Below, one piece after another: positions 23,199 through 63,212 of a stretch of 64,000 nt of DNA; positions within the stretch are counted from its first letter, which is position 1; each line of letters begins with the position of its first letter. The notes below the pieces were generated by a model. It saw nothing but the letters and a program-made list of their open reading frames with translations, was not told where the DNA came from and did not search any database. The translations under genes were made by a program, and so were the position numbers. The stretch is from positions 320,001 to 384,000 of the forward strand of contig CBDCXV010000010.1 of the NCBI GenBank assembly GCA_965223905.1. The letters are read 5' to 3'. The DNA comes from Candidatus Latescibacterota bacterium (GTDB taxonomy: Bacteria > Latescibacterota > UBA2968 > UBA8231).

Positions 23199-23640
23199 GG
23201 ATCAGGAAAAATAAGGCACCGATATCGGTACTATGCGGTTCGCTGAAAACGTACGCAAGGGTCCAGCAGGGTCCCGATGAATCGCTTGTCGTCGCACAGA
23301 ATCGTTCGGGGATGCTCAGAGCACCGTTGTAAAGGATTTCGGCGCGTTTCAGGGGTCAACCTGGTACTTGAGGGCGCACTCCTCCGTCCGGCTCACGGCG
23401 CACAGCGAATTGCGGAGGAGGTCAGACGGCGAACTCGAATTGCAGCTGAGGCGGGGCACTCGGCGGCCGCTCAACCGGCAGCCCTAACCCCTCCCAGAAA
23501 GCGTCGGATCTCGCCTGGATCGGTCAGGGCGGCGATGATTCTCAAGGGACCTCCCCAAGCGGCGCATGCGCTGACCTGGGCGGCAAACCCTCGGGCAAGC
23601 AGGGCCGCCCACCCCAGCCGATGACCGCAGGAGAGAGCCC
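23199..23640 (-). mobile_element. Diverged ISCR/IS91-like remnant (oriIS-like end + transposase 3' end)
   Basis: GATCAGGAAAAATAAGGCACC resembles GTATAGGTAAAATGAGGCACC. The minus strand encodes SCGHRLGWAALLAR...LRIIAALTDP and FEFAV*. Confidence 0.65.
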
Positions 23641-23957
23641 TCGAAACGCGCTCGGCAGCCGGGGGCTGAGAATTCCAGCTTCGGAGGAATCCCCCGGGAA
23701 AGCACTACTACTTCCTGGAAGTCATGCATCCCGACCCCATCCCTCAATACCCGAACAACGTCACGCACACCATGGGCGCCAAAGGATGTAACACACCCAT
23801 CTTGGTGGAGACATCGGAATGACCGCCGCCGAGGTACCCGCGCCCGAAACTCGGGGAAAAAAGCGATCGCGCGGGTTTTTTCCTCCCATTATTTATTGCG
23901 TCCTGACATTACAACGCGCACCCGCATCCTGGAGCGATTTCGGGTGTTTCCAAGGAG

Positions 23958-24905
23958 CTAATCATCCACCCAGTTCTGATACTCTTCCCATGCGTCTTCA
24001 CGGCTCACGAACGGCTTGAAGACAACACGGGCACTGAAGGTATAGTGAGTCAGCGGTTGGCAGTCCTTGATGAGCATGGCAAAGTCCCACGCTGGATTCG
24101 TCAGTCCCCCGCCTGTCGGCTGAATCGCGAATCGAAGGGATTCCGTGCTCTTGAACATCAGTTCGAGCATCATATTCCGCCAGCATCCGTAAAAGAACGG
24201 ATGGACATATCGGATGGGGCGGATGTTGTGGAACAAGCCGCCGTCCGGATTGGGTTCACCCTGGATCAGGGTATCGGCTTCACTCGCAAAGACACGCGCG
24301 TTCAGTGGTTGTTCCATTAACGATTCAATCCATTGTTCGGGGCTGTTTTCGTCCGGACGGCCGAGGAAGCAGGTGGTCTTGTTTTCGGGGTTGTGGATAT
24401 AACTGGCCCAGAACTGCCCCAGCCAATCCCCCTCGAAAGCGCCGGGATGGGCAACGCATGTGGTTTCCAGGTCGATGAAATGCGGTGGAACCAGGGTAAA
24501 GGTCGTGCTGACCTCAATGCGACGGGGTTCGGGGATAGCGGTCGTCAATTGGACCGAGTTGTCATCAAGCCGGGTGAGTTGGCTTGGCGTTGGCGGAGTT
24601 CCGAGCTTGCCGCCAAGCCAACGGGGAATCATCGACCTGCCGGACCGGTCGTAGATGAACTCGAAATTGAGACTGCTTCCCCAGGATGACCGGAAGATGT
24701 TCTCCTGTGGGCCGCGTCGGCTGTAGAGTTGGCGCACACCGTTGTAACCGTTCGCCCGTTCAAAAGGGAAAGCGATGTTGTCGAAACGACCTTCCCTGTT
24801 CGCTCGAGAGAGTTCATCGACCCGTTTCTGGGGGAAACCTCCTCCGTCGTTGTTGTCTACCACTTCGACGAACAGGTCACCATCCATGAGAAATTGACTT
24901 GCCAT
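23958..24905 (-). CDS. Hypothetical protein (possible beta-sandwich/mutarotase-like fold)
   Basis: 315-aa ORF with protein-like composition (FWASYI, NPAWDF). No function is recognised. Confidence 0.6.
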   Translation of the reverse strand: MASQFLMDGDLFVEVVDNNDGGGFPQKRVDELSRANREGRFDNIAFPFERANGYNGVRQLYSRRGPQENIFRSSWGSSLNFEFIYDRSGRSMIPRWLGGKLGTPPTPSQLTRLDDNSVQLTTAIPEPRRIEVSTTFTLVPPHFIDLETTCVAHPGAFEGDWLGQFWASYIHNPENKTTCFLGRPDENSPEQWIESLMEQPLNARVFASEADTLIQGEPNPDGGLFHNIRPIRYVHPFFYGCWRNMMLELMFKSTESLRFAIQPTGGGLTNPAWDFAMLIKDCQPLTHYTFSARVVFKPFVSREDAWEEYQNWVDD

Positions 24906-25102
24906 AGAAAAAGCCCTTCAACTATCGGTTGAGTTTGGCCTGCCGTGTCGGTGGCAGGTGAGGTTTGTAGTCCAGCGATTGGTTGGGCATATCGGGAGCG
25001 AGAGCTCCCTCCCACAGACAAGAGGCGGAATGCACATAAACGTCGCCGGCAAGGATTCGCTGCTGCGGGAATTAAACTCGAACAAGCGGAAGCGGTAGCA
25101 CA

Positions 25103-26110
25103 ATGCCGAAACACCGAATAGCGATTGTGGGAGCCGGGAACATGGCCCGGGCACGGGGCAGGGCGTTTCTGGATACGGGCGGTGCGGAAATCTGCGGGGT
25201 CGCGGCCCGGCGCGCACAGCGTGCTGAAAGCTGCGCGGCCGAGTTGGGGTGCGACGTTTTCTGCGATGACTTTCGCCGATTGGGGGAGGCCGGGCCGGAC
25301 GCGATCCTGATCGAGGTTCCGCATCGGGTTCAGGACGAGGTCTCCATGTGGGCATTGGATTCCGGTTACGACCTCCTCGTGGGCGGATGTCTGGCTTCGA
25401 GTATGGAAAACGGGCGCCGGATCGTGGAATTGGCGGCCCGGAACAGTCGCATTGTGGAGGCCGGGTTCCAGCGCCGTTACGACCCTGCCTGGGAGGAGAT
25501 TCGGCGCCTGGTGGCGGGCCGACACCTGGGAGAGCCGGTGATGGCCGTGACCATGGCCCTGTGGAACCCGGACCCGGACGGGTGGTACTGTGACCAGGAG
25601 GCGAGCGGGGGGATGCCCCTGACCCACATGAGCTACTGCTATCTCAATGCCGTCCGCTGGATTCTCGGCAGGCCGACCACCGTGTCCGCAATGGCCAATC
25701 GGATGCGAAATACGGCTCCCGGTCACGTAGTGGAAGAGACATGCGGGGCCCTGATCGGATTTGAAAACGGGGCCTTCGCTTCGGCCACCGCCAGTTATAT
25801 CGGGCCGGAGGGCATGCCCGACCCACAGCCGCGATTTGTCTGCGCCGAGGGTGGAATCCTTTCCCATGCCGACCGCCCGCCCGGCAAGAATTCCATTACC
25901 GTTTTCCAGAGGGGCCGTTCCGAGGTGCGCGCTTTTGAGAACTCCCCTTCTCCGCTTGTCCGGCAGGCAACCGCCTTTCTGGATGCCATGGAAAGCCGTC
26001 GCGAAGCCCGCAATCCTCCGGAAGATGCCCTTCTGGATGTCGAAATCGCCGAAGCCGTCTCGGTTTCGGCCAGGGAACACAGGACGGTCTCGTTGGCGGA
26101 AATGGGGTAG
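25103..26110 (+). CDS. Gfo/Idh/MocA family oxidoreductase
   Basis: IAIVGAGNMA, AGFQRRYDP and SGG motifs. Confidence 0.85.
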   Translation: MPKHRIAIVGAGNMARARGRAFLDTGGAEICGVAARRAQRAESCAAELGCDVFCDDFRRLGEAGPDAILIEVPHRVQDEVSMWALDSGYDLLVGGCLASSMENGRRIVELAARNSRIVEAGFQRRYDPAWEEIRRLVAGRHLGEPVMAVTMALWNPDPDGWYCDQEASGGMPLTHMSYCYLNAVRWILGRPTTVSAMANRMRNTAPGHVVEETCGALIGFENGAFASATASYIGPEGMPDPQPRFVCAEGGILSHADRPPGKNSITVFQRGRSEVRAFENSPSPLVRQATAFLDAMESRREARNPPEDALLDVEIAEAVSVSAREHRTVSLAEMG

Positions 26111-26275
26111 GTCCAAAAAGATCCAGCAAAGATTTCCAGGCGATATTTGCACAATGGTCGATGTGAGACAGCGTGGGTAAGAGGTGATATGATGGGGTCT
26201 ATCCGGGTTTTTCAACGCCGAAACGTAAGTACGGAAAGTACCTGAGCCCTTGCTGTCCATCTGAGTACATGACAA

Positions 26276-33812: not shown

Positions 33813-33820
33813 CGAAAAAA

Positions 33821-34812
33821 GTATAGGTAATGAGGCACCTTTTTTGACTCTCGGTCAAGGCGCTGAGCGTACCGCAAGGGTCTGGCAACTCCCCTGAGGA
33901 TCGTTGCCAGTCCTTCGACCGAGCTCGCAGTACAGTTTGGTTGCCTGTCGGCCCGTATCCGCATCAATCCGGGGCCTGAGGGACCGTTGAGGGCACCCCC
34001 CCGCCGTACGCCCGGCGACGGCCACGGGTCGAGAAGGCAGGTCAGGCGGCGAACTCGAACGGCGGCTGCGGCGGGGGGCCTGGCAGGGGGCCAACGCCGG
34101 GGGCCGGGCCGGCAAACCGACCGCGGTCAAATAGCATCGGATCGAGGCCGGATCGGTCCGGGCGGCGATGATCCTCAGGCGCCCGCCACAGGCTTTGCAT
34201 TCGCTGAGGTCGGAGGAAAACACCCGCGCCAGCAGGGTCGCCCAGCGCAGTCGATGGCCGCAGGACGCAACGCTCGCATCGCCGTCCGCCGCCGACGGCT
34301 CGGCAACCGGCTTGGCCGCCACGATGCGCTCGCGGGCCCGGGCCCGGGGCGCCAGGACCCCGTGGTAGCGTAGGAGATGGAGCGTACGCACCCCGGTGGC
34401 CGCATCTTTCAGGACCCGGCGCAGGGCGTTGGCCGGCGCGTGCCCCGGTGGCGGTGATCCCTCGCACCGAAGCCGCGGTGAGAGCCGCCAGCACCGGCTC
34501 CTCGTCGGTGAGCGGATCCGCTGCGGTGTCGTCGAGCAGGCCGCGTTTCGTGCACCAGCGGATGATGCGGCGCGCACTCGTCTCCACGATCTGCTGAACG
34601 GCTTGGTCGGACAACGGCGGGGCCGGAACGGAAACCGGAGCGTCCTCCCCATCGACGTAGACCCCGTCGAGCATGAGCACGTGTACGTGGGGATTGAGGT
34701 TCAGGGAGGAACCGAATCTTTGGACGAAGGTCACCGAGCCCCACCGCGCGCGGTCATGGCCCATGGCCTGCGCCTGACGCCGATACCAACGGCCCACCAC
34801 GCGCAGAAACAC
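33821..34812 (-). mobile_element. ISCR/IS91-like remnant 1: oriIS + 5'-truncated, internally deleted transposase
   Basis: The oriIS end reads ...TTACCTATAC. The HUH motif NPHVHVL is present and TGVRT is joined to HLLRYHGV, so the catalytic Tyr region is missing. Confidence 0.88.
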
Positions 34813-35029
34813 GGGGCCAGATCGATTACACTAGCTCGCCCGAGGTGGTATCGAGCGACTTCGTCGGCAATGAGAGAAGCGGCATCGTCGACTCGGGGGC
34901 GACCATTACCCAGGGCAAGCGCTGCGTGCTGTACGTGTGGTACCCGACAACGAGTACGGCTACAGCGCCCAGGTGATCCGCATCCTGCAGCACATATCCG
35001 GTCTCGAACTGCCCTATTTCCCCAAGTAA
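34813..35029 (+). pseudogene. gap: C-terminal fragment of glyceraldehyde-3-phosphate dehydrogenase
   Basis: IDYTSSPEVVSSDFVG...LYVWY / DNEYGYSAQV (WYDNE.GYS signature, with a small frameshift). Confidence 0.75.
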
Positions 35030-35052
35030 TCCAATAGCTAGGACAGCTCTCC

Positions 35053-36206
35053 ATGCGAGAAAAGCGAGAAGCCAAATACCGGGTCGGCGTCATTGGCTGC
35101 GGACGGGCCGGCACCAGTCGGGCCCGGCCTTTGATGTGCACCCCTTGTGCGAGGTGGTGGCCATTGCCGATACGGATGCGGAAAATCTGGCGCTGGGTTG
35201 CCGCCGCTTCGGGGTGCCCGGCTACGCCACCTACGAGGAGATGTTGGCACGCGAGTCGATCGATATCGCCATGCCAGTGCTGCCGGTGGGAGCCAACGCC
35301 GGAGCAGTAGTGGCCGCGGCCCAGGCCGGGGTCAAGGCCATCTTTTGCGAAAAACCGCTGACGGCCCGGCTGTCCGCAGCCGACCGCATGGTGGAGAGCT
35401 GCCAGCGGCGGGGCGTGTATCTGGCCTCGGGCGTCATGGTGTCGAGCCATCCAGACTACCGCCGGGCCTGCGAGTTGGCCGCGCGCGGGGGGGGGGGGGC
35501 GATTGGCCAAGTGCAGGGCATCAATCTGTACGACGGCAACGGCCAGGGTGGCTGCCACGGTTTGAACTTGGCGCGCAAGTTCGCCGCCAGGGCGCCGGCG
35601 GAGTGGGTCGTCGGCCGGGTCGAGGGCGATCCCCATAGCGATCACGAGGAACCCTACGAGGAAGGAGCCACTGGTTTCGGCGGCGTGGGCGGGTACATTC
35701 GCTTTGACAATGGCATAGAGTGCTTCAGCAGCTTCCCGGGCCCGGCCTGGCGCGGCCTCGAGGTGGTGGGCAGCGAGGGACTGATCTGCAATTGGAACAA
35801 TACGGCCCTAGGTTTGCGCCTGTTCAAGCACAGCGGTCGAGGGGCCCCTTTGGTCGAGGTGGAAGGGGTGTTCGAGCAATACACCGAGGAGGAGAGGGGG
35901 TACGACGACGAGGGCTGGCAGGATTCCGGGCCGGTGATGCGGGCCATTGTCGAGGATATCGTCCGCGTCCTCGAAGAAGGCGGAGACTTGGCAATCACCA
36001 GCGGCGACGATTTGCGCCATGCCCTGGAGTTGGCCGTGGCCCTGCGCCAATCGCACCGGCAGGGCGGCGCCCGGGTGTCCCTGCCCTTGGCGGATCGCTC
36101 CCTGGTGATGTACCCGGAAAAGATGCGCTGGAACTACAAGAAAGACCTCATGGGTCGAGCCGCCTATATGGCGCAGATGGCGCGCCAGGTCGAGGAGGGC
36201 ACCTGA
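35053..36206 (+). CDS. Gfo/Idh/MocA oxidoreductase, frameshift at ~35128
   Basis: YRVGVIGCGRAG in the first frame and FCEKPL in the second. The C-terminus resembles that of the 3738 paralogue. Confidence 0.8.
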
Positions 36207-36236
36207 GAAGCTCTGGCGAAAGCGGTTAGTGCATGA

Positions 36237-37307
36237 TCAGGTGGTGAGCAGCTTTGCCAGTTCGGGCAAGACATCCTCGGCAAGACCCTCGACAAACCAG
36301 TCCTGTGCATGCATGAAGGCCGGTCTTTCTGGAGCCACAACGACGATTTGGAGGGCGTTGTCACGGGCATAGTCCAGCAGACCGTTATTTGCATCCATCG
36401 ACACGCCTGCAACCAAAGCTACCTGACCTTCCTCGATCCAAGCCCAGCCCTCGTCTGAGCTTTTAAAGTACTTGGGTTCGTTTATATGCACTTTTTGGCT
36501 ACCGGCCCATTCGTGCAGCCCGTCAAAATTGCCCGTAATGATATGCTTCAGTATTCCGTGTTTCTCCAATTGTGCAAGAGCCGCATGGGCTTCGGTGGGG
36601 CTGGCTGTCATAAAGCGGGTATAGAATGTTCCAAGTACTATAGCCGTCTCACGAGGTCGGTGTATTATCCAATCGGCAACAGCACCGGGAAAACGGTAAT
36701 TGTCGATGGGGAATTGCTCCTGCAGTCCACCTTTCCCGTCAAACGCGGGAATACCTGCCGCGGCCGATAACCCAGCGCCCGTGAACGCCACTAGTGGCTT
36801 GCCCTGAATGCGACGCGCAAGTTCCGCCACGTCAACAGCCTCAGCCTGTTCAGGGGCTTGCTCTGGACTTACGGGGTAGTAGCCCCTCCTGCGTTCCGAT
36901 CGTGCCCGCAAGGAGTTCCTAAAAATGGCGGGATCGTCGTGTGAGAGTAACAAATGAGTTGCGACCGTTCCATCGCGCGTTGGTTGGGAGAAAAACTCCA
37001 ACTTAAACTCCTCCCAGACAGCTTCGAGGCGATTTTCCTGGCGCAATGTAGCAGACCACAGACCATCCATGATAGTCTGTCGCAGAGCACTAATCTCGGC
37101 AATCATCTCCTCCTGCTCGTGTTCGCAAGAATGGGCTACCAGGAGGTTTGCCAAGTCAACCTGGCCTTCGCTGGAGATAGCAAACTCGCCATAGAAGCCG
37201 AAAAATCCCGATGGTCCTCCAAAATTGAAATCCATTCCATAGAAGCCCCCAGTTTGTTCTTTGTACCACTCCAACTGCTCTGAGGTTATTTGAGTCAGCC
37301 TGATCAT
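36237..37307 (-). CDS. SIR2/sirtuin-domain protein with N-terminal extension
   Basis: FTGAGLSAAAGIP.F, PTEAHAALA, IITGNFDGLH and GVSM motifs. Confidence 0.75.
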   Translation of the reverse strand: MIRLTQITSEQLEWYKEQTGGFYGMDFNFGGPSGFFGFYGEFAISSEGQVDLANLLVAHSCEHEQEEMIAEISALRQTIMDGLWSATLRQENRLEAVWEEFKLEFFSQPTRDGTVATHLLLSHDDPAIFRNSLRARSERRRGYYPVSPEQAPEQAEAVDVAELARRIQGKPLVAFTGAGLSAAAGIPAFDGKGGLQEQFPIDNYRFPGAVADWIIHRPRETAIVLGTFYTRFMTASPTEAHAALAQLEKHGILKHIITGNFDGLHEWAGSQKVHINEPKYFKSSDEGWAWIEEGQVALVAGVSMDANNGLLDYARDNALQIVVVAPERPAFMHAQDWFVEGLAEDVLPELAKLLTT

Positions 37308-37451
37308 ACGCCTCCAACCTTCATGCTCGATAGCATCTATCAGTTCTCTAAGAGGGCGGACAGGGTACTTGCCTCGGGACGAGTACCGAGCTTTTCGCTA
37401 GTCGTCTGCCGGGGCCCGCGTGGAATACCGTGGCGTCCAAAGGTGCTCTAA

Positions 37452-38612
37452 TCAGTAGTCCCGCAGGGCGCCGTCGGGTCCAATCACCGGCGACCGGGTA
37501 TAGGGCACAGGCGGATAGTGCGGGAACGCTTCGTCGTTCAGTTCAATTCCAATGCCGGGAGTCTGCGGCACAATCAGGAAACCGCCCTCGCGTCGCAGTG
37601 GCATCTCGACCAGATCCCGTTTCGGGGCATCGTACTCGTCCCGCGGGTACTCCTGGATGGCGACGTTGTGGATGGCGGCGTCGAGTTGCACGCACGCCGC
37701 GGTCAGGACGCAACTCAGAGGGTTGTGCGGGGCGACTCCCACGTAGCTTGCTTCGGCAAGCGCCGCGATCTTTTTGCAATTCGTGACTCCACCGGCGAGC
37801 GACAGGTCCGGCCGGATGTACGAGGCCCCCTTGTGGGCCAGCAACTCGCGGAACTGGTAGGTGGTGTAGAGCCGCTCGCCCATGGCCACGGGCACCGGCA
37901 TATTTGCCGCGATATGGCCCCACGCGTCCATGTTCTCGGGCTCGATGGGATCCTCGAAAAAAAACAGGCCATAGGGCTCAAGGGCCTTGGCCACCTCGAT
38001 GGCCTCCGGCGGCGTGAGGCGGTTGACCACGTCGACCATGAGATCGATCTCGTCACCCACGGCGTCGCGGACCGCCTGTAGGGTAGCCGCGGCGTGCTTA
38101 GCCATGCCGCGGAACGACAGTTGTTCTAGGCTTGTGCCCTCGCCGGACGCAAAGGCCCCGAACGGATAGAGGCGCAGGGCTGTGTAGCCGGCCTCGACCA
38201 TGCTCCGGGCGTCTGCGGCCAACTCCGCCGGGGTATCGCCCTGCAGATGGGAGTACACGCGCACGCGCTCCCGCGTAGGACCGCCTAGCAGCGAATGGAC
38301 GGGTAGCTCGGCTACCTTGCCCTTGATGTCCCATAGCGCGATGTCGATTGCACCGATCGCGGCCATGGTGTCTGCGCCGCCGCGAAACACGCAGCGGCGG
38401 AACATGTGCTGCCAGTTGCGCTCAATGTGGAGGGGATCCTTGCCGATCAGGTACTCGGCGCAGTAATCCACCGCCGCAATGGGCGCAAACGACGTGCCGC
38501 TGGTGCCGCTTGCGGGGTGCAACTCGCCGACCCCCGCTATGCCCTCGTCAGTGTGCACCCGCACGTAGATAAAGCGGCTGGCCCGCAGGGTCTCGATCTT
38601 CGTGACTTTCAT
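37452..38612 (-). CDS. Mandelate racemase/galactonate dehydratase family enzyme
   Basis: AIDIALWDIKGK, FEDP, GERL, PHNP and PGIGIE motifs. Confidence 0.9.
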   Translation of the reverse strand: MKVTKIETLRASRFIYVRVHTDEGIAGVGELHPASGTSGTSFAPIAAVDYCAEYLIGKDPLHIERNWQHMFRRCVFRGGADTMAAIGAIDIALWDIKGKVAELPVHSLLGGPTRERVRVYSHLQGDTPAELAADARSMVEAGYTALRLYPFGAFASGEGTSLEQLSFRGMAKHAAATLQAVRDAVGDEIDLMVDVVNRLTPPEAIEVAKALEPYGLFFFEDPIEPENMDAWGHIAANMPVPVAMGERLYTTYQFRELLAHKGASYIRPDLSLAGGVTNCKKIAALAEASYVGVAPHNPLSCVLTAACVQLDAAIHNVAIQEYPRDEYDAPKRDLVEMPLRREGGFLIVPQTPGIGIELNDEAFPHYPPVPYTRSPVIGPDGALRDY

Positions 38613-38642
38613 ATCCGTTCTACCTATCTGCCTTCCTAAAAA

Positions 38643-38780
38643 TTAGCTCGCCTCGCGTCCCCGCAGCGCCCCACTCCCCACCATCGCGATCTCCAACGCC
38701 CTCAGCCCATCGCGGTGATCAACGGCAAAGGGTGCTCCAGCACGGCACTGGTCGATATAGTGGGCCACCTCGGCCTTGAA
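38643..38780 (-). pseudogene. C-terminal fragment of a Gfo/Idh/MocA gene cut by an oriIS junction
   Basis: FKAEVAHYIDQC...DGLRALEIA begins exactly at the oriIS end. Confidence 0.55.
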
Positions 38781-40470: not shown

Positions 40471-40471
40471 G

Positions 40472-44715: not shown

Positions 44716-44898
44716 ATGAACGTCAGACCTATACCTTCCCGCCTGACCCTACCGCTGCTAACTGCGGCTCTCGCGACCATCTACTATGGGTCGGCGCGAC
44801 TCGGCCTGTTGCTGGCATTTGAGAACACGAACGCGTCTCCGGTGTGGCCGCCCTCGGGCATCGCATTCGCAACCCTTCTGCTCTTCGGATATCGAAAA
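44716..44898 (+). pseudogene. MASE1-domain gene truncated by an oriIS junction
   Basis: YYGSARLGL...ASPVWPPSGIAFATLLLFGYR ends at the oriIS. Confidence 0.75.
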
Positions 44899-45867: not shown

Positions 45868-46526
45868 GCACCCACATAGACTATGGGATGCGTCCCCTGG
45901 CTCAATTTAATGTTTTCCCGCGGATTAAATACGAGACTGGTGGTTAGATCGGGCATACTTTCCGTTATGGTCGTGCCCCCTCCTCCTACACCAGGAGGTA
46001 TTTCAAATGTCATTACGTAATCATCGTAATATGGCAAATGCGCCCCATGCAATAGATATTCCACGCCTAGTACTTCTATATCGTCAATATTGTCATGGAG
46101 ATGCCTCGTATTGACAATTACATGAATTCTCTGCCAGTCGCCCTCATGTCTGTTCCACCAGTGATTGTAGGGATAGAAGTAGAGATATTGAATTACAGTG
46201 ATGTCTCCCAACATATCGTGATTGCTGATATCGTATACATACACGTAGGCTGTATTCGGGAAGTTATCGCCCGCGTGAGGTCCGTCGCCAAAGTACGTGC
46301 CATTCCATCCGGGGGTTATGAGGTAATCTGGTCCATCCGGAAAAGGATTCGGGACCTTTTTCCCTTCTGGTTTCACACCGGGATAATCAAAGTAAGGAAC
46401 TACTTTGTAAAAGCCATTTTTAAAACCAGGGGGAGCACCGATGTATTCGAAGGGAGAGATCTCGGCGAAGGAGTTCCTGGCGAGAATGTCGAATACGGTT
46501 AACGCTATCGACCTCGTTTTGATCAT
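45868..46526 (-). pseudogene. Low-GC fragment of a Vps62/NPP1-like protein fused in frame to the transposase remnant
   Basis: IQYLYFYPYN...HEGDWQ...HG...THPIVYVG motif pattern. Confidence 0.5.
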
Positions 46527-46767
46527 GATCCGTGAAACGCTTAAACAAAAAGAAGGAGGTGAACGAGAAGGCTGTCAGCGGCTGGATGAGAAAGCCGGTA
46601 CGGGCTTACCAGAAGATCAAGGTGTGTGGGTGTCAGCTCAGCGAAGTCGCAATCGGCCGCGCGACGTCGCTACGGCAGCCCTGGCGAAATGTTCGTTCAG
46701 GATGTCTGGAAGGCTCTCGATAATGGCGAGATCATCGACGCGAAAAGTCGGATCGCGTTGCGGTGGC

Positions 46768-48924: not shown

Positions 48925-49577
48925 GTGTGGGACGAACTCCTCGCGTGCGGTCATTTTTCCTTTGACAGTTGAGGACAGAAGGGGCAATCTTGGGGGCGGA
49001 GACATGAAAGGGCGCAAAAACCCCCTTCACTAGCCTCCACCCGGTCGTTAGTCCGCGCCCCTCCCCGGTCAGCGACTAACGGCCGTTTTGTTTAGATTTC
49101 CGCGACGACCGAGACCACGGAGGCTCTCCTCGATCAAGAGCCCTCTCTCGGCGACGGCTGATCGCCCGAATAAAAACAAAATCCGCACGGGCCTTCCTCG
49201 GCAGCGCGGGCGTTTGGGTAGGCTAGGTGGTCTCGCTTATGACCGCGACCGGTCCTCTCGGTCGCTTAGCGAAGGCCCCCAGATATCAGATCCGGCAGCT
49301 ATTAGCCGGAACGCCTCGTTTCGAATACGCACCCTCTGGTGACGAAAACCGCCACAACCTGAGCCGAAGAAGCCACAGCTGTCTCCTCCGTTATCTGTCA
49401 CCTGGATAGCGGAGGAGGTAGCGTACTCTGTATCGGCTTTTGAGTTTACCAGACACTGCGCCCAGTCGAACGCTGGATGCCGTTGAAGGTTGAAATTAGA
49501 AAACACGCTCGGAGGCGTCAAGGGGGTCGTTTCGGTCCTGGGCTGAGACGCCAATCCCGCCCGTCAATATCAACATA

Positions 49578-51040: not shown

Positions 51041-51065
51041 CGCCACATTCCCGCATCACCATCAA

Positions 51066-51652
51066 GTATAGGTAAAATGAGGCACCTTTTTTGGACTCTC
51101 GGTCAAGGCGGACAGCGCACCGCCAGGGTCAGGCAGCTCCCGGAGGATCGTTTGCCAGTCCTTCGACCGAGCTCGCAGTACAGTTTGGTTGCCTGTCGGC
51201 CCGTATCCGGATCAATTCGGGGCCTGAGGGACCGTTGAGGGCACACCCCGCCGTACGCCCGGCGACGGCCACGGGTCGAGAAGGCAGGTCAGGCGGCGAA
51301 CTCGAACAGCGGCTCAGGCGGGGCCCTCGGCGGGGGCATCGCCGGCAGCCCTACCCCCTCCAGACAGGTCCGGATCGAAGCCGGATCGGTCCGGGCGGCG
51401 AGGATTCTCAGGCGACCGCCACAGGCCGCACATTCGCTGAGGTCGGAGGAAAACACCCGCGCCAGCAGGGTCGCCCACCGCAGCCGATGGCCGCAGGACG
51501 CAGGGCTCGCCGAGCCGTCCGCCGCCGACGGCTCGGCAACCGGCTTGGCCGGCACGATGCGCTCGCGGGCCCGGGGCCGGGGCGCCAGGACCCCGTGGTA
51601 GCGCAGGAGATGAAACCGGGGCGGGGGAACCAGAGCCGCCCGCTTCTCCAGC
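51066..51652 (-). mobile_element. ISCR/IS91-like remnant 4
   Basis: oriIS plus transposase from LEKRAALV to FEFAA*. Confidence 0.9.
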
Positions 51653-52044
51653 GTCTCGATGCGGATGTACGCCATCCCCTCCCCCTTCAGATGCTCGATG
51701 GCCGTCTCCACCAGTTTCAGCCCGATCCCCTTTCTCTGATGCCGCGGTAGCACAGCGTAGTTTGGAATCCCGCCTATTTTGGCTTCTTCGTCTACGCGGG
51801 TAGTGATGTAGCCCACCACCTCGCCGTCGACCTCAGCGACGAACATTCCGTCAGCATGCGCATCCACGTCCGCGTCGATATGCCGCTTCTTGCGCCAGCG
51901 CCAGCCGTGACCGGCGATCGGGCCGAACTCCTTCTCGATGTTCTGATCGATGGAGACACCGTCGAAGCAGATGGCGGTGATTTCTTTGACGATGTCGAGA
52001 TCGGCGTCGGTGCACTTCCTGTCGGTGCACTTCCTTATGTTCAT
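51289..52044 (-). CDS. GNAT acetyltransferase fused in frame to the ISCR transposase C-terminus
   Basis: FVAEVDGEVVGY and AVLPRHQRKGIG, then IETLE|KRAALVPPPRF. Confidence 0.75.
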   Translation of the reverse strand: MNIRKCTDRKCTDADLDIVKEITAICFDGVSIDQNIEKEFGPIAGHGWRWRKKRHIDADVDAHADGMFVAEVDGEVVGYITTRVDEEAKIGGIPNYAVLPRHQRKGIGLKLVETAIEHLKGEGMAYIRIETLEKRAALVPPPRFHLLRYHGVLAPRPRARERIVPAKPVAEPSAADGSASPASCGHRLRWATLLARVFSSDLSECAACGGRLRILAARTDPASIRTCLEGVGLPAMPPPRAPPEPLFEFAA

Positions 52045-52062
52045 GTCGTTTTCCGCTCGCGC

Positions 52063-52417
52063 CTACTGCCTCTGCACCAGTTCGATCAGCAACCCGTCCG
52101 GATCCCTCGCGCATACGACGCCGCCGTTTTCGTACATGAACGGGTCCGACACGAATTCCACACCTCGTCCCTGCAGTTGCGCCACCGTATCTTTCAGATC
52201 GGCCACGAAGAAAGTGATCCAGCGAACGCCGGCAGAGAAATCCCCGGAGCCCGAGGCCGGCGGCGACTCGATCTGCATCAGCTTGAGCAGGGTGTCACCC
52301 GCTTGGAGCCGCACCTGGCGGAAACCGCTGGGCGCCAGCCCCACCTGTGTGGCCAGTTCCGCGGAGATCTCCAGCTCCACGGCGATCTCGAATCCAAGCT
52401 GATCGCGATAAAACTCC
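52063..52417 (-). pseudogene. 5'-truncated copy of the VOC/glyoxalase gene
   Basis: Identical to 55211-55565 but lacking the first ~22 codons. Confidence 0.85.
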
Positions 52418-53746: not shown

Positions 53747-54213
53747 GGGACCGGGAGTGCTTGATCGACGGGTGAGCGCGTACTCAAATGGCTGCGAGAC
53801 TTCTCAGAATATACGTAAGTTCCACTTTCGCTACCACCCAGGTCCCGCTGCGGCGACTTCGCCGCCTTGGCCTCCGGAAACCTGGCTGCGCCAGGTTCCC
53901 AAACCGTGAGACGTTATGCGGAATTTTCAGGATAGAGACGAGGTGCATTGGAGTTGAGCCTAATTGACAAACTGCCAAGCCCCGAATGGGTCAGGAAGGA
54001 ATATGGGATTCTCTGGGATGGACAGTACTGCGACATGACCGGCAGTATCGCCCATGTTGTCAGGATCGAGCCAAAGAATGTTGGGGGATCCTATGTGGTT
54101 CGAATCTCCGATCCCAAGCGGATCTGCAGCGGCGGCTGTCGCTAGTTCACCGGTTCCAGACTCACCTGACCACTAGAGGTGTGCGGACCGTTCTGCCGCT
54201 GAAGGCCCTTAAA

Positions 54214-54800
54214 GTATAGGTAAAATGAGGCACCTTTTTTGGACTCTCGGTCAAGGCGGACAGCGCACCGCCAGGGTCAGGCAGCTCCCGGAGGATCGTT
54301 TGCCAGTCCTTCGACCGAGCTCGCAGTACAGTTTGGTTGCCTGTCGGCCCGTATCCGGATCAATTCGGGGCCTGAGGGACCGTTGAGGGCACACCCCGCC
54401 GTACGCCCGGCGACGGCCACGGGTCGAGAAGGCAGGTCAGGCGGCGAACTCGAACAGCGGCTCAGGCGGGGCCCTCGGCGGGGGCATCGCCGGCAGCCCT
54501 ACCCCCTCCAGACAGGTCCGGATCGAAGCCGGATCGGTCCGGGCGGCGAGGATTCTCAGGCGACCGCCACAGGCCGCACATTCGCTGAGGTCGGAGGAAA
54601 ACACCCGCGCCAGCAGGGTCGCCCACCGCAGCCGATGGCCGCAGGACGCAGGGCTCGCCGAGCCGTCCGCCGCCGACGGCTCGGCAACCGGCTTGGCCGG
54701 CACGATGCGCTCGCGGGCCCGGGGCCGGGGCGCCAGGACCCCGTGGTAGCGCAGGAGATGAAACCGGGGCGGGGGAACCAGAGCCGCCCGCTTCTCCAGC
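54214..54800 (-). mobile_element. ISCR/IS91-like remnant 5
   Basis: Same sequence as remnant 4 but with a different oriIS flank. Confidence 0.9.
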
Positions 54801-55192
54801 GTCTCGATGCGGATGTACGCCATCCCCTCCCCCTTCAGATGCTCGATGGCCGTCTCCACCAGTTTCAGCCCGATCCCCTTTCTCTGATGCCGCGGTAGCA
54901 CAGCGTAGTTTGGAATCCCGCCTATTTTGGCTTCTTCGTCTACGCGGGTAGTGATGTAGCCCACCACCTCGCCGTCGACCTCAGCGACGAACATTCCGTC
55001 AGCATGCGCATCCACGTCCGCGTCGATATGCCGCTTCTTGCGCCAGCGCCAGCCGTGACCGGCGATCGGGCCGAACTCCTTCTCGATGTTCTGATCGATG
55101 GAGACACCGTCGAAGCAGATGGCGGTGATTTCTTTGACGATGTCGAGATCGGCGTCGGTGCACTTCCTGTCGGTGCACTTCCTTATGTTCAT
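54437..55192 (-). CDS. GNAT acetyltransferase-ISCR C-terminus fusion (second copy)
   Basis: Identical translation to 51289-52044. Confidence 0.75.
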   Translation of the reverse strand: MNIRKCTDRKCTDADLDIVKEITAICFDGVSIDQNIEKEFGPIAGHGWRWRKKRHIDADVDAHADGMFVAEVDGEVVGYITTRVDEEAKIGGIPNYAVLPRHQRKGIGLKLVETAIEHLKGEGMAYIRIETLEKRAALVPPPRFHLLRYHGVLAPRPRARERIVPAKPVAEPSAADGSASPASCGHRLRWATLLARVFSSDLSECAACGGRLRILAARTDPASIRTCLEGVGLPAMPPPRAPPEPLFEFAA

Positions 55193-55210
55193 GTCGTTTT
55201 CCGCTCGCGC

Positions 55211-55630
55211 CTACTGCCTCTGCACCAGTTCGATCAGCAACCCGTCCGGATCCCTCGCGCATACGACGCCGCCGTTTTCGTACATGAACGGGTCCGACAC
55301 GAATTCCACACCTCGTCCCTGCAGTTGCGCCACCGTATCTTTCAGATCGGCCACGAAGAAAGTGATCCAGCGAACGCCGGCAGAGAAATCCCCGGAGCCC
55401 GAGGCCGGCGGCGACTCGATCTGCATCAGCTTGAGCAGGGTGTCACCCGCTTGGAGCCGCACCTGGCGGAAACCGCTGGGCGCCAGCCCCACCTGTGTGG
55501 CCAGTTCCGCGGAGATCTCCAGCTCCACGGCGATCTCGAATCCAAGCTGATCGCGATAAAACTCCAGCGATTTGTCGAAGTCGCTGCAGACGATGGCGAT
55601 GTCGACGACGGTGTGAGTTTGTTTGATCAT
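55211..55630 (-). CDS. VOC/glyoxalase family protein
   Basis: IAIVCSDFDKSLEFYRDQLGF and RDPDGLLIELV motifs. Confidence 0.88.
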   Translation of the reverse strand: MIKQTHTVVDIAIVCSDFDKSLEFYRDQLGFEIAVELEISAELATQVGLAPSGFRQVRLQAGDTLLKLMQIESPPASGSGDFSAGVRWITFFVADLKDTVAQLQGRGVEFVSDPFMYENGGVVCARDPDGLLIELVQRQ

Positions 55631-55685
55631 GTTCGCCTACCTCCTCTTTGGTCGAACGAGCCCCGAGGCGCTGGCGCAGCCCGGC

Positions 55686-56675
55686 TCATCGCATCCGGGA
55701 GTCGGACATCCACATGTCAGGGTTCCGGCCGATGGCGTCTTTGACAGGTTGTGTCAGGCGCTCTAACTCGGCCATCGTAGCTGCGTCGAGCTCCAACGAA
55801 AGCGTCGGCAGGTTGGTCTCCAGTTCGTCCGCATCCCGGGCGCCGACCAGGAAGGATGTCACTCCCCTCTGCTGTCTCACCCAGGCGAGTGCCACGCTCG
55901 CCATCGGGGCGCCAACCTGGCGGCTCAACTCGCGAATGCCGGAGATGGCGCTGAAAACAGCTGCCTCGCATCCCGGCTCGCCGTGTCCGGCCTGCGCGCG
56001 GGAGCTCGCATACCATCGCGTCCGGGCCAGCCCCTCCGGAACCTCGTCAGCCGTCGCATACCTTCCCGTCAGCAGCCCCTGCGCCAGCGGACTGTAGCAT
56101 ATCAACCCGATCGCGCTCTCGCGGCAGAGCGGCAGGATTTCAAACTCGATTGCCCGCCACAGAAGGCTGAAGGGCAGCTGGTTCGTCTCCGGCCGGCCAA
56201 CCTCGATCAGATCGGACAGGTCGCCGACGGCGAAGTTCGCGACACCGAGCGCGCGCACCTTGCCCTCCCTCACCAGATCCTCGAGCGCGCGCCAGGACGT
56301 GTCGATCGGGATGTCGTGATTTGGCCAGTGGATCTGGTACAGGTCGATGTAGTCCGTATTCAGATTTTTGAGGCTCTCCTCGCAGGCGGACGCGATCCCT
56401 TCCGCAGTCAGGTGGTTCGGGGCTACCTTGGTTGCGATCACCGCCTGCTGGCGCCTCCCTTCCAGACCACGTGCGAGAACACGCTCGGACTCACCCTTCT
56501 CGTATGCCTCTGCCGTGTCGAAGAGGTTGATGCCCGCGTCCAGTGCGGCGCGCACCGTCGCAATCGATTGATCGTCGTCCTGATCGCCCCAGATCGAGCC
56601 GCCCGCGAAGGGCCAGCAACCCAGACCCATCACCGAGACTTCGATACCCAAATTGCCCAGCCTCCGGTATTCCAC
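55686..56675 (-). CDS. Aldo/keto reductase
   Basis: GINLFDTAEAY, DYIDLYQIHWP and YSPLAQGLLTG motifs. Confidence 0.92.
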   Translation of the reverse strand: MEYRRLGNLGIEVSVMGLGCWPFAGGSIWGDQDDDQSIATVRAALDAGINLFDTAEAYEKGESERVLARGLEGRRQQAVIATKVAPNHLTAEGIASACEESLKNLNTDYIDLYQIHWPNHDIPIDTSWRALEDLVREGKVRALGVANFAVGDLSDLIEVGRPETNQLPFSLLWRAIEFEILPLCRESAIGLICYSPLAQGLLTGRYATADEVPEGLARTRWYASSRAQAGHGEPGCEAAVFSAISGIRELSRQVGAPMASVALAWVRQQRGVTSFLVGARDADELETNLPTLSLELDAATMAELERLTQPVKDAIGRNPDMWMSDSRMR

Positions 56676-56692
56676 TTCACTCCTTCATGTGA

Positions 56693-57270
56693 TCAAAGCT
56701 CGTTGAGGCCTGTCAGGCTGTCAGTCCTGAGTGCCACAGCCTGTGAAAACGCCCCGACCTCAGCAGAAGATCTAAGACGCACAAATCGTATGTGGTTCCA
56801 AGACGATTCAGTAGTATATGCCAGCATACTGCGACGCGTGCGCCGGTGCTGCGTGACAATCCACCATAGCAGCGAATCCTCCTTGCGCCAGACCATGAGC
56901 TGGGGCCAGAAACGCTCGTAGTTTGTCCCCCAAAGCGGCTCCTGCGACCGCCAGCGACGCCACGAATCGAATCAGCATTCGCCAGATGAGTGGAACCATG
57001 GGCAAATCCAGCCAGCGATCGTCTCCAGGCGTGGCCAGAAAATGCGTTGTGAAAATTGCATGTAGGAGCCGGCCACAACCCATCCATCACCACGGGTTGC
57101 TTCGCCTATTCTCCGTTCGAGTTCCTCGGGGTTTGTGTCGCTCAGAGCAACCCAGCCAGGTTGCCAATTGAGCGCGTCCAACTCCACCAAGGGGACGCCG
57201 AGGGCGGCCGACAGCTGCGCTCCCAAGGTGCTTTTTCCAGCGCAGCTATTCCCAACTATTACGGGGAGCG
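56693..57270 (-). pseudogene. Adenylate-kinase-like/FlaR P-loop protein, frameshifted and 5'-truncated
   Basis: IVGNSCAGKSTL, ELDALNWQPGW, WLDLP and FVRLRS are found over three frames. Confidence 0.7.
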
Positions 57271-57378
57271 GTAAATAGGTGACATAGATGGCACCATTTC
57301 CCCTTCGAGAGTGTTGTAAACTTTCAATTACTCCCCGTAGTATGTGAATCCTGTGGCCGGTCCGTAAGCCAGTGTGCG

Positions 57379-57819
57379 TCACTCGAACTGCCGTTCGCTC
57401 TGGCGGACCGCCTTGCCTTTGCCTCGAATGATATCCCGGCGCTTCCAGGTCTGGACGGCGCGACAGATCCAGTCGCTCTCACCGAGGAGTCGCCGTAGCT
57501 GGTCTTTCGTGAACCACTCATGCCGATCGCGGGCCAGTTGGTCAGGAGGCAATGTTTCATCGGAGTAGCCGTACAGTCGGCAGACACCGTCTTTCGTTTC
57601 AACATCCTCGATGTAGGACATCCACGGGATGTCCAGTCCGAGCTGTGTCTTTGTATAGAGCCTTATCGCCGCATCGATATTCCCGAGCCGTGACTCCTCG
57701 CTGGCCAAGCCCCGCGACCGGGCAAGCGCCTCCTGCGAAACTGTGCCATCGTCGGCTGCGGATACAGTTGGGCAGTCAGCTGACCTGCTCTGCCAGTGTC
57801 GAGGCACCGCAGAAGTCAT
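57379..57819 (-). CDS. Hypothetical protein or gene fragment
   Basis: 146-aa ORF with no recognised family. Confidence 0.35.
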   Translation of the reverse strand: MTSAVPRHWQSRSADCPTVSAADDGTVSQEALARSRGLASEESRLGNIDAAIRLYTKTQLGLDIPWMSYIEDVETKDGVCRLYGYSDETLPPDQLARDRHEWFTKDQLRRLLGESDWICRAVQTWKRRDIIRGKGKAVRQSERQFE

Positions 57820-57956
57820 TGCTGATTGCCACTGATTGTCACGCTTCCCGTGAACCCACTTGCCACCAATCTATCTGCGACAGCCTGAGCTGACGAATCG
57901 GTCAGCGCGTGCGCGAGCTCTCGGTCCCCAAACCGAATGCTACGCGACGGTCGTTC

Positions 57957-59924: not shown

Positions 59925-60108
59925 ACCCAGTAGTCCCTCTCTCGAGTGTCGCCAGGAAACCTCGACGACCTACTCAATTCCAATGGTCACAAGATGAAAC
60001 GGTAGCGGAGGAATGGAAAGAAAAGATGGATATGGAGATGCGGATGGGGATGGAGAAATGGAGATGGGCACCAGTGGAGACGTGGGAGGAGTACTACTCG
60101 ATCTCCAA

Positions 60109-60698
60109 GTATAGGTGAAATGAGGCACCCTTTTGGACTCTCGGTCAAGGCGGACAGCGCACCGCAAGGGTCCGGCAACTCCCCTGAGTGTGGATCGTTT
60201 GCCAGTCCTTCGACCGAGCTCGCAGTACAGTTTGGTTGCCTGTCGGCCCGTATCCGCATCAATCCGGGGCCTGAGGGACCGTTGAGGGCACCCCCCGCCG
60301 TACGCCCGGCGACGGCGACGGGTCGAGAAGGCAGGGCCGGCGGCGAACTCGAACAGCGGCTCAGGCGGGGCCCTCGGCGGGGGCATCGCCGGCAGCCCTA
60401 CCCCCTCCAGACAGGTCCGGATCGAGGCCGGATCGGTCCGGGCGGCGATGATTCTCAGGCGACCGCCACAGGCCGCGCATTCGCTGAGGTCGGAGGAAAA
60501 CACCCGCGCCAGCAGGGTCGCCCAGCGCAGCCGATGGCCGCAGGACGCAGCGCTCGCCGAGCCGTCCGCCGCCGCCGACGGCTCGGCAACCGGCTTGGCC
60601 GGCACGATGCGCTCGCGGGCCCGGGCCCGGGGCGCCAGGACCCCGTGGTAGCGCAGGAGATGAAACCGGGGCGGGGGAACCAGAGCCGCCAGCTTCTC
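60109..60698 (-). mobile_element. ISCR/IS91-like remnant 6
   Basis: oriIS GTATAGGTGAAATGAGGCACC plus transposase from EKLAALV onward. Confidence 0.9.
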
Positions 60699-61884: not shown

Positions 61885-61889
61885 GCGCT

Positions 61890-62496
61890 ATGGGACTTGT
61901 GTACATCGAGTACATCAGCCGTCTGCCGGGCATCGATCTGGAGACGTTTCGCGCGCAGGCTGCACAAGGCCAGGAGGGATGGGACAGCGGGTATGAGGAC
62001 GAGTTGGTTCTGTCCGTCGGTCGCACGTGGCGATTGGGTCCCGACCCGGGCTACATGACGGTCTGGCACGCGCGGAACGCCAGCCTTGACCGGATCGACG
62101 CGTGGGACCGGATCTTTCGCAGCGGCGAGGCGGACGACCTGGAACAGCCGTTCTTTCAGGTCGCGCGGATCGACGTGGCCGGCTGCTACGATCCGCTGCT
62201 CGAACCGGTCCCGGCCCGCAACGGTACCTACTACGCCGAGTTTTTCGCTGCCCGCGACACCGCGGATACCATCAGGGGCTTCTACGAGAGCCGGGCAAAA
62301 CAGCATCCTGAGTTCACCCTCAATCTCCTCGTCCAGAGAATCGGGAAGCTGGCTCCCGAACCCGGCGGCCTAGCCGTCTGGACCATCCCCCTTCGCAGCG
62401 CTGGATTCCGTGGCAACCGAGCTGGACGGAGCCAACGCCCCGATCAGGCTTTCCGCCGCAGGGACCTATGCCGACTTCGGCAGGGAGATCCTGTGA
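61890..62496 (+). CDS. Hypothetical protein, probable frameshift at ~62390
   Basis: It follows the Gfo gene closely. The alternative frame ends with a plausible GTYADFGREIL*. Confidence 0.55.
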
Positions 62497-62584
62497 GAGG
62501 CGGGCGGTGGCAAACCTTCGGATAAGTTCCGCGGTATCGTCACGAGCGAAGAATTTGTCTGGCTACTTCCACGCAACCTTCCTG

Positions 62585-62903
62585 CCGGGGCGGGGGAACC
62601 AGAGCCGCCCGCTTCTCCAGCAGTTCCATCGGAGACAGCAGGAGAGGGCGGGTCCCATCCGACCACGGCGTTTTGAGCGCGAAGGAAAAATGGTCGGCAT
62701 CGAGAATGCGCAGACGCCCCCCCGCCAGGGCCGGCCGGGCCACGTAGCGGCACAAGCGTTCGAGCCCCCGTCGAGCATGAGCAGTGCATGTGGGGATTGA
62801 GGTTCAGGGAGGAGCCGAACCGCTGGACGAAGGTCACCGAGCCCCAGCGCGCGCGGTCATGGCCCATGGCCTGCGCCTGACGTCGATACCAACGGCCCAC
62901 CAC
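62585..62903 (-). mobile_element. Orphan ISCR transposase piece with internal deletion
   Basis: VVGRWY...MLDG is joined through a G-run to GLERLCRYVARP...VPPPR. No oriIS is present. Confidence 0.88.
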
Positions 62904-63032
62904 ACCTCGAGTTCATTCAGGGCGTGATCGCCCCCCTCGCCGGTAACTCCTTCCACCTGAAGAGCTGGGCCGTCCTCCTGGTTTCGGCGCTGCTGGTCTT
63001 CCTGACTTGGAAAGGGAGGGTCGAGTTGGCCC
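62904..63032 (+). pseudogene. ~130-bp fragment of a small membrane protein gene
   Basis: It translates as HLEFIQGVIAPLAGNSFHLKSWAVLLVSALL. Confidence 0.6.
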
Positions 63033-63212
63033 CCGCAGCCGATGGCCGCAGGACGCAGCGCTCGCAGCGCAGTCCGCCGCCGACGGCTCGGCAACCGGCT
63101 GGGCCGGCACGATGCGCTCGCGGGCCCGGGCCCGGGGCGCCAGGACCCCGTGGTAGCGCAGGAGATGAAACCGGGGCGGGGGGACCAGAGCCGCCCGCTT
63201 CTCCAGCAGTTC
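63033..63212 (-). mobile_element. Orphan ISCR transposase piece
   Basis: It translates as ELLEKRAALVPPPRFHLLRYHGVLAP...SCGHRLR. Confidence 0.88.

Follow-up and report, generated by a model that had tools for sequence, protein, structure and literature searches.

We analyzed a 64-kb stretch of a Candidatus Latescibacterota chromosome (hereafter the window; C10:320001-384000 of genome G000, an assembly of 7.92 Mb in 11 contigs) in which six ends of an IS91-family insertion sequence of the ISCR type lie in a single orientation amid metabolic genes and gene fragments. In the IS91 family, transposition has been described as starting at one end, oriIS, and ending at the other, terIS, without target duplication, with a transposase that acts in trans and with circular intermediates (PMC13181058, PMC3189936, PMC13393415, PMC5737581). 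All six window copies extend to the outermost letters of the ori end (the ori tip), and the ter region is missing from all six. In the list below, positions marked q are those of a reference, C11:524000-526100, which holds an intact transposase frame; positions outside the window carry the name of their contig.

23205..23661, minus strand: diverged remnant of a second subfamily, with the transposase 3' part and a variant ori region; the last 6 nt of the tip are gone
33819..34379, minus strand: copy 1 ori module, q1332 to the ori tip; 84-91% identical to other copies
34383..34812, minus strand: internal transposase fragment, q645-1073; a q1073/1332 break connects it to the copy 1 module
34383..38613, no strand assigned: segment A, with the transposase fragment, a GAPDH tail, a partial Gfo/Idh/MocA gene, a SIR2-domain gene and an enolase-superfamily gene
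38779..40483, minus strand: copy 2, near full length, q179 to the ori tip
44897..45867, minus strand: copy 3 ori module, q917 to the ori tip
44897..49010, no strand assigned: unit 3, module 3 plus 3.1 kb of cargo
51064..52417, minus strand: unit 4, with an ori module (q1292 to the tip), a GNAT gene and the 3' part of a glyoxalase gene
54212..55565, minus strand: unit 5, same content as unit 4; its glyoxalase gene (55214-55636) is intact across 55565|55566 into segment B
55566..57654, no strand assigned: segment B, with the glyoxalase start, an aldo/keto reductase gene and flank
60107..60698, minus strand: copy 6 ori module, q1296 to the tip, joined about 27 nt from the start of a divergent Gfo/Idh/MocA gene
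62585..62903, minus strand: scrambled internal transposase pieces, q1145-1328 and q657-795
63030..63212, minus strand: internal transposase piece, q1287-1463, without an ori tip

The sequence AAGTATAGGT occurs exactly on the plus strand at 33819, 38779, 44897, 51064, 54212 and 60107, and the transposase coding frame of the copies runs on the minus strand. With one mismatch or fewer allowed there are 7 matches against 0.47 expected, a number reached in none of 100 shuffles, and a search for repeats recovered families of 5-7 copies, 180-300 nt long, in register at the ori ends. On the reference the copies break at q645 (copy 1), q179 (copy 2), q917 (copy 3), q1292 (copies 4 and 5) and q1296 (copy 6); other than copies 4 and 5, they differ from one another by substitutions, at 87-97% identity. 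An original prediction, made from the letters of this DNA, had recognized the six near-identical ends, placing them two bases too high, along with their common strand and the substitutions that separate all except copies 4 and 5. It had also noted a diverged end near 23200, which is the second-subfamily remnant (74.9% over q1417-1720; 83-89% to C10:1368426, 1459899, 1465381 and 1647165, with the tip of this subfamily elsewhere reading TATTTTTCCTATACAT), and two orphan pieces, which are those at 62585-62903 and 63030-63212. A ter-end orphan lies 2 kb outside the window at C10:385972-386174. The accompanying claim that each copy is cut at a variable point and joined to unrelated DNA describes most of them and fails for copy 2, which retains the entire transposase frame, frameshifted near the C-terminus, and at the ter end is short of only about 85 nt, the hairpin included.

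We consider it almost certain that these repeats are those of an HUH rolling-circle insertion sequence of the IS91 family and, within it, of the ISCR type, as had been predicted. Pfam finds Zn_Tnp_IS91 (PF14319) and Y2_Tnp (PF04986) both on the 730-aa frame of copy 2 and on the intact 480-aa protein. The latter aligns at 38-43% over more than 90% of its length to the transposases of ISCR1 and ISVsa3 (ISCR2) from plasmid records, the HUH residues H182 and H184 being invariant and the zinc-domain cysteines kept in the alignment. A single tyrosine in an (R/K)LCRY315 context, (R/K)311-L-C-R-Y315, is common to all four aligned proteins; IS91 proper has two tyrosines. The best NCBIfam model is that of ISCR clade Ia (NF052416, E=1.1e-108), at 364 bits where its cut-off is 925; the IS91 family transposase model NF033538 gives 108.3 bits, below its cut-off of 125. 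This is a new, distant member outside the named clade. Within the frames of 480-730 aa Pfam matches only the two domains above and no helicase domain, and the description of the system as Helitron-like is therefore an analogy only. No integrase domain was found among the 84 open reading frames of the window scanned with Pfam, a scan that included no search aimed at IntI or attC.

The full element is about 1.8 kb long and comprises a hairpin-bearing terIS, the 480-aa transposase gene, an untranslated stretch of about 220 nt that includes subterminal palindromes, and an oriIS tip ending in ...GGTGCCTCATTTTACCTATACTT; oriIS thus lies downstream of the transposase gene, where the original prediction had put it. 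The tip resembles the ISCR end ...CCTATAC and aligns with the ends downstream of the ISCR1 and ISVsa3 genes as AAAAGG(T/C)G...TTCCTATAC: our ...AAAAAAGGTGCCTCATTTTACCTATACTT corresponds to ...AAAAAGGTGGTTTATACTTCCTATAC, which follows the ISCR1 gene at a distance of about 220 nt, and to ...AAAAGGGCGTTTATTCTTCCTATAC downstream of that of ISVsa3. Next to the tip is a subterminal hairpin, CTGGCAA/TTGCCAG, within a longer imperfect palindrome (fold z-score only -1.86), and the ter region with its TGTGAGG..CTTCACA hairpin is found at 5 places genome-wide. CTT at the tip is invariant within the subfamily and the next base is variable, such that element and target are not distinguishable at the tip; outside this CTT no consensus target motif was found at the ori tips.

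One unit with its cargo is present twice in the window. Positions 51064-52417 and 54212-55565 are 100% identical over 1354 bp, in a match that begins exactly at the ori tip, passes through the transposase remnant and the GNAT gene, and ends inside the glyoxalase gene. Unit 4 carries 766 bp of DNA from upstream of the module; its far end is a non-homologous junction (52417|52418), and its flanks show no target duplication. Its glyoxalase gene is cut, and that of unit 5 continues across 55565|55566 to cover Pfam profile positions 5-121 of 121. Because the gene is intact only at copy 5, we take this as the source context and copy 4 as derived, i.e., unit 5 was probably the source of unit 4, as judged from their sequences.

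Segments A and B extend this picture to a second array. Segment A (4231 bp) is 99.93% identical to C10:1608868-1604638, and segment B is 100% identical to C10:1604638-1602945 and 99.4% to 1602947-1602634. In this 1.6-Mb array the two are directly fused, at the very nucleotide, 55565|55566, that also ends unit 4, so that one break point has been used in two rearrangements. Segment A ends 1 nt past the start codon of the enolase-family gene. Its transposase fragment at 34383-34812 is 95.8% identical to copy 2 and 99.9% to C10:1608439-1608868, and the adjoining ori module is only 91% identical to that locus; by this comparison the fragment is from a different copy lineage than the copy 1 ori module.

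As for the other cargo, unit 3 includes a 749-aa gene with nucleotidyltransferase, CDP-alcohol phosphatidyltransferase and HAD matches in Pfam, and copy 2 adjoins an MBL-fold hydrolase gene whose 5' shortening was judged by eye. The predicted MBL-fold hydrolase, the GNAT gene and the Gfo/Idh/MocA gene beside copy 6 all have Pfam matches; the GAPDH tail is weakly matched (Gp_dh_C, E=4e-4, below the gathering score), and a Vps62-like piece that had been proposed receives no Pfam support.

Several further details of these units were observed. In units 4 and 5 (51289-52044 and 54437-55192, minus strand) the GNAT gene is in frame with the last ~125 transposase codons and uses the natural transposase stop, giving a fusion frame of 251 aa. 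Segment B in the window contains an 84-bp stretch (57257-57340) that is absent from the 1.6-Mb duplicate and from the related genome G002, and the form without it is present in contigs of all four sequencing runs discussed below. By eye, positions 38614-38778 (minus strand), directly outside the ori end of copy 2, look like the final ~48 codons of a Gfo/Idh/MocA-type oxidoreductase, with the enolase-family gene after them; Pfam has no match for 44 aa from this stretch and blastn none in the genome. If the reading is right, this ori end adjoins a beheaded gene.

The pattern in the window is repeated throughout the genome. Blastn with the reference returned 56 high-scoring segment pairs, merged to 51 copies, of which 23 have the ori end, 5 the ter end, 3 both and 26 neither. 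Copies with the ori end alone, a mark of one-ended miniature fragments (PMC3189936), thus outnumber those with the ter end alone by 20 to 2 (binomial p=1.2e-4). Among 244 pairwise alignments 138 stop within 3 nt of the ori tip, 93 fall short of it and 13 extend beyond it by 16 nt or less. The last ~60 nt at the ori tip are always kept in a series of modules that runs from 1.7 kb down to about 55 nt, and most copies are non-autonomous, having kept the ori tip with a variable 3' part of the transposase gene and lost terIS.

The copies are also clustered and co-oriented, as we observe directly. All 28 adjacent pairs (neighbors less than 15 kb apart) share an orientation (p=7e-9), and 2000 trials of random placement gave a mean of 4.6 such pairs and a maximum of 11; the random orientation and even density that would have spoken against the original prediction are not what the genome holds. 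Rather than at one locus, as predicted, arrays are found on C10 at 343-386 kb, 527-562 kb, 1.46-1.48 Mb and 1.60-1.65 Mb and also on C1, C2, C9 and C11, and they recur in related genera. A replication-strand bias was considered for the orientation and dropped: cumulative GC skew is weak, with no clear turn on C10.

Among 31 related genomes surveyed with the transposase (G000 included), 18 have matches, mostly C-terminal fragments in co-oriented clusters. Counting a 23-nt ori tip and a 21-nt ter motif with up to 3 mismatches gave ori/ter numbers of 18/4 in G002, 20/0 in G004, 6/0 in G012 and 0/0 in both G010 and G016, the last of which has a different subfamily with other tips. In G004, which belongs to another genus, 58 kb contain 12 ori tips, all on one strand, on modules of about 55 to 550 nt, and there is no intact transposase. 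Ten of its copies have a letter-perfect ori tip (23/23), the remainder of the module being only 75-81% identical to the reference; no cargo is common to this array and G000 above 84% identity.

G002, an independently assembled one-contig genome of the same genus as G000, has at the orthologous position an array of the same orientation and different content. Unit 3 (44897-49010) is 97.5% identical to G002:C1:6015092-6010992, in a match that begins exactly at the ori tip, with another flank outside the tip, and stops 5 nt short of the ATG of the 749-aa gene; segment B is 99.5% identical to G002. Blocks of the arrays are shared at 97.6-99.8% identity between the two genomes and the adjoining core DNA at 93-95%, which points to recent exchange of array blocks between them, as far as identities can tell. 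For window copies with contiguous flanks, no empty site was found in G001, G002 or G016 because the content of the island differs too much. A separate observation concerns another Latescibacterota chromosome (OZ244619.1), in which a pair of ori tips from different subfamilies, equally oriented, is separated by 78 nt (11650-11734); the same flank as there follows a G004 ori tip at 2531091.

The copies are repeats of 590-1700 bp at 87-100% identity, and no contig of the public runs reaches across even one 590-bp module in full; for the long-range order of the units we depend on the assembly and its agreement with G002. We nevertheless consider it highly improbable that repeat-driven misjoins or chimeras made the junctions. 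Of nine listed runs, six, which come from three studies, contain 0.87 or more of the words sampled from 49500-58000. In a comparison of the window with contigs of four runs from the three studies every unique junction examined was found, in support of the original prediction. Contigs of the four runs cover the flank of copy 3 and its ori end (44001-44923), cargo 3 through the Gfo gene into the ori end of copy 4 (46154-51092, or two overlapping pieces), and 52417|52418 as far as the ori end of copy 5 (52388-54240); 55565|55566 is likewise covered, with 55536-56354 in two runs. G002 has unit 3, the ori|Gfo junction and segment B as well, and the assembly resolves ~20 near-identical copies of an ISL3-family element.

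Two further observations were made on these contigs. In three of the four runs (X5, X7 and X9) the truncated end of module 3 (45867/45869) is directly joined to an ori tip (54212). Such a joint would be a head-to-tail or circle-type junction; its shorter side is only 21-28 nt, which makes it weak, and it may stem from another strain or repeat. The 52388-54240 contig has about half the depth of neighboring unique contigs in three of the four runs, as would be expected if part of the population had lost one unit through recombination between the identical repeats; contig depth is not rankable and was not used as evidence.

A single intact transposase frame, of 480 aa, is present in G000, at C11:524224-525663. 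The ori tip of this copy is missing its final 16 nt and the distal ter region ~30 nt, and a copy on C1 has both tips and a C-terminal frameshift. From its sequence the C11 gene is a candidate helper that could act in trans on the ori modules. At C11:525873-525900 its ori tip is replaced after ...GGTGCCT by TGGGGGTATCCATTTAAC..., and similar letters follow another damaged ori tip and are also found at a third place (C11:1260906, C10:~55860); these letters may mark the end of a different mobile element, one with ISCR ori tips as its insertion sites.

On balance we favor, as the probable explanation, that the ter-less ori modules were made and moved by one-ended rolling-circle transposition and then shuffled by recombination. 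In such a scheme the transposase, supplied in trans by the C11 gene, would nick the ori tip, and replication would displace a strand through the element towards ter. Termination would be imprecise, and an early stop would leave a ter-less ori module; as a module of this kind could terminate only in upstream DNA, each later mobilization would carry upstream DNA with it. Homologous and illegitimate recombination between co-oriented modules would in turn duplicate, delete and re-sort the genes between them, and would keep the arrays co-oriented and clustered. In favor of this explanation are the family to which the element belongs, the surplus of ori-only copies with their sharp ori boundary, the clustering and co-orientation, the ori-anchored duplication of units 4 and 5, the start of unit 3 at the ori tip with different outside flanks in G000 and G002, the recurrence of segments A and B in another array, the blocks shared with G002 above the identity of core DNA, the intact C11 gene, the similar arrays of related genomes and the precedents in IS801 and IS91. 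That the transposase rather than recombination made the junctions, and that the element is active now, we infer from the sequences. Of the gene capture in trans originally predicted, the ori-anchored duplication of units 4 and 5 and an intact transposase elsewhere in the genome stand; no cargo donor in this genome and no termination consensus was found, and recombination has a share.

Several findings weigh against this explanation. Both ends are absent from 26 of the 51 copies, no G000 copy unites an intact transposase gene with both tips, and of the 244 ori-anchored pairwise alignments only that of units 4 and 5 has cargo in common. The orientation has no simple two-replichore pattern, switching at least 7 times along the G002 chromosome. 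No intact donor was found in the genome for any cargo fragment (blastn of positions 1-70000, numbered as in the window, against the genome itself), the MBL, GAPDH-tail and 45868-46500 pieces having only paralogues of 66-83%; a look for donors was among the checks named with the original prediction. The truncated ends show no consensus tetranucleotide, the feature by which one-ended products of IS801 were recognized (PMC3189936); break points recur among them only at q1235, q1296 and q1332, two each. At least 4 breaks are internal deletions (q501/1233, q795/1145, q1073/1332 and q977/1301, the last with 12 nt of microhomology). An 1186-bp internal fragment without ends is 100% identical to the intact copy 27 kb away, so mechanisms not anchored at ori also move pieces. 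Finally, the ori|Gfo junction of copy 4 is also present in G002, backed there by a unit 3-type module. The position of this ori end may therefore be ancestral, and unit 4 possibly a conversion or template-switch copy rather than a fresh insertion.

Several of these findings indicate that recombination also shapes the arrays. The block composed of unit 3 and Gfo is circularly permuted between G000 and G002. Over 600 nt the window modules have 26 differences among themselves and 73-77 to the G002 module, which, on sequence grounds, suggests that they exchange among neighbors. An argument for independent insertion at the same site was dropped, the copy 4 module being no further from the G002 module than that of copy 3 (77 versus 73 differences). 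When the 1.6-Mb array is compared with G002, one module has no ori end in G000, with q1541 joined to the downstream flank, and another has a different upstream break in G002; junctions thus change in place. For part of the shuffling, recombination between modules is at least as good an explanation as transposition.

The question is then whether transposition of the modules is needed at all. Full-length copies might have inserted repeatedly into a permissive, fast-changing island and been eroded by deletion, other insertion sequences and recombination, with no mobilization in trans and no capture; the genes between the copies would then be no more than genes of the island. The many copies without ends, the internal deletions, the truncated ends without a termination consensus and the lack of cargo donors are what one would expect of such a history. 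ISL3, ISKra4-like and IS4-like elements lie in the same region, the orthologous G002 site is also a variable island, and the IS801 study attributes most natural fragments to reorganization (PMC3189936). Yet random erosion predicts ter ends about as common as ori ends, against the 20 ori-only and 2 ter-only copies observed here and the 20 ori tips and no ter motif in G004, where ten tips have stayed perfect while the rest of their modules diverged. The 100% duplication that starts exactly at the ori tip also speaks against erosion, and the uniform co-orientation is not expected from independent insertions. We regard erosion as an unlikely account, though the foremost of the rivals.

Alternatively, the ori tips might serve as paired sites, the transposase stopping at the next co-oriented tip or host recombination excising the segment between, with circles of one ori and one gene block re-entering at other ori modules to an integron-like gene-shuffling effect. 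Strict co-orientation at a spacing of 2-14 kb would fit, as would the circular permutation of the block composed of unit 3 and Gfo, the closer likeness of the window modules to each other, and the ori|Gfo junction that is the same in G000 and G002 while the upstream content differs (q1292 and GNAT versus q917 and unit 3 cargo). The weak joint of module 3 to an ori tip in three runs points the same way, and so does G004, which still has 12 perfect or near-perfect tips on one strand without an intact transposase. Against this, blocks in common between arrays are mostly not bounded by ori tips: the end of segment B is 389 bp away from one tip and 2.4 kb away from another, that of unit 4 is 1.8 kb short of the tip that follows, and no ori-to-ori unit was found in two contexts. 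We know of no report of termination at a second ori in the IS91 family, and consider the paired-site mechanism improbable. The broader speculation that ter-less ISCR modules form heritable, co-oriented cassette arrays, a gene-shuffling platform whose blocks are excised, re-inserted and passed between species, is somewhat less doubtful and still unlikely; so is its corollary that such arrays persist even in genomes without a transposase. One-ended transposition followed by recombination thus remains the reading that we prefer.

The processes invoked have precedents. Termination is described as failing in 1-14% of events for IS91 and IS1294 (PMC13181058), and one-ended transposition of IS801 as yielding right-end fragments and capture of upstream DNA (PMC3189936). 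For IS801 of Pseudomonas syringae, Bardaji et al. (2011) describe right-end fragments of 229-679 nt that arise by early termination, full copies with 290-1431 nt of upstream DNA, and a transposase acting in trans (PMC3189936), features that the present system would share under the explanation favored here. In contrast to ours, the IS801 fragments are reported to end in a consensus tetranucleotide (PMC3189936), and 5 of the 17 natural P. syringae fragments described keep the right end alone, compared to our 20:2 ratio of ori-only to ter-only copies. IS91 and IS1294 resemble our element in having distinct oriIS and terIS ends; for them, transposition without target duplication, mobilization of adjacent DNA when termination fails, and circular intermediates are described (PMC13181058), and our element may behave likewise. 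IS91 is described as using CTTG/GTTC targets and CTCG at ter (PMC13181058), whereas only CTT is invariant here.

Multiple co-oriented ISCR copies with different adjacent genes are described from resistance islands (PMC7707992, PMC13393415). Beyond the transposase, with its shared Zn and HUH motifs and single tyrosine, our element has in common with ISCR1 and ISCR2 the homologous tip ~220 nt downstream and the occurrence of terIS-less copies beside unrelated genes. It differs in residing in a Latescibacterota chromosome rather than in Proteobacteria plasmids or integrons, in its cargo of metabolic genes and fragments rather than resistance genes, in the dozens of truncated modules per genome and arrays of up to 12 tips, and in its NCBIfam score far below the clade Ia cut-off. 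Nearer in cargo are the IS91-type elements beside the catabolic gene sdpA and others in Sphingobium herbicidovorans, for which repeated, conserved terminal regions are described as substrates for duplication and a circular form carrying genes, sdpA among them, as having been observed; that account concerns a megaplasmid with few copies, all full-length elements (PMC5737581), in contrast to the chromosomal truncated modules described here. With the Helitrons of eukaryotes, as these are generally described, our element shares its HUH rolling-circle type, one initiating end, many non-autonomous copies and, as proposed here, capture of gene fragments by read-through; it is bacterial, has no helicase and is related to ISCR, not RepHel.

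The region also contains features of other kinds. An ISL3-family insertion sequence (Pfam DDE_Tnp_ISL3) at 26195-27658 has ~20 genome copies at 99-100% identity and is, to judge from these, probably active. At 32257-33812, ending 6 nt from the ori tip of copy 1, is a 1.56-kb repeat coding for a 475-486-aa protein without a Pfam domain, which matches the NCBIfam ISKra4 family transposase below threshold (182 bits versus a cut-off of 205) and has copies at 96.6-99.7% at C11:1060272, C10:207833 and C2:56586. Four 51-bp tandem repeats at 31563-31806 are part of a reading frame with a DM9-repeat Pfam match and have a related copy at C10:390938-392039. Between unit 3 and the Gfo gene lies a unique 644-bp spacer (49011-49654) that contains an inverted repeat (near 49030-49075) and, immediately upstream of the Gfo gene, a short stretch of ~25-45 nt that is locally duplicated. 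Rfam gave no family at gathering score within 20000-64000.

Work on ISCR elements has dealt almost entirely with their role in carrying resistance genes in clinical Proteobacteria, and most of what is said of their mobility is still deduced. The kind of element described here and its mechanism of capture are already known, so our findings extend existing knowledge rather than establish a new principle; what is new is the host phylum, the scale and the non-resistance cargo, and in the literature collection searched no paper combines Latescibacterota with IS91. A distant relative of ISCR is present in chromosomes of an uncultured phylum as dozens of ori-only modules, in strictly co-oriented arrays amid metabolic genes. 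If the cassette reading were true, ISCR elements would drive the flux of accessory genes in environmental bacteria at large, well beyond resistance, and in any case these arrays offer a resistance-free system in which to study gene capture by ter-less rolling-circle elements.

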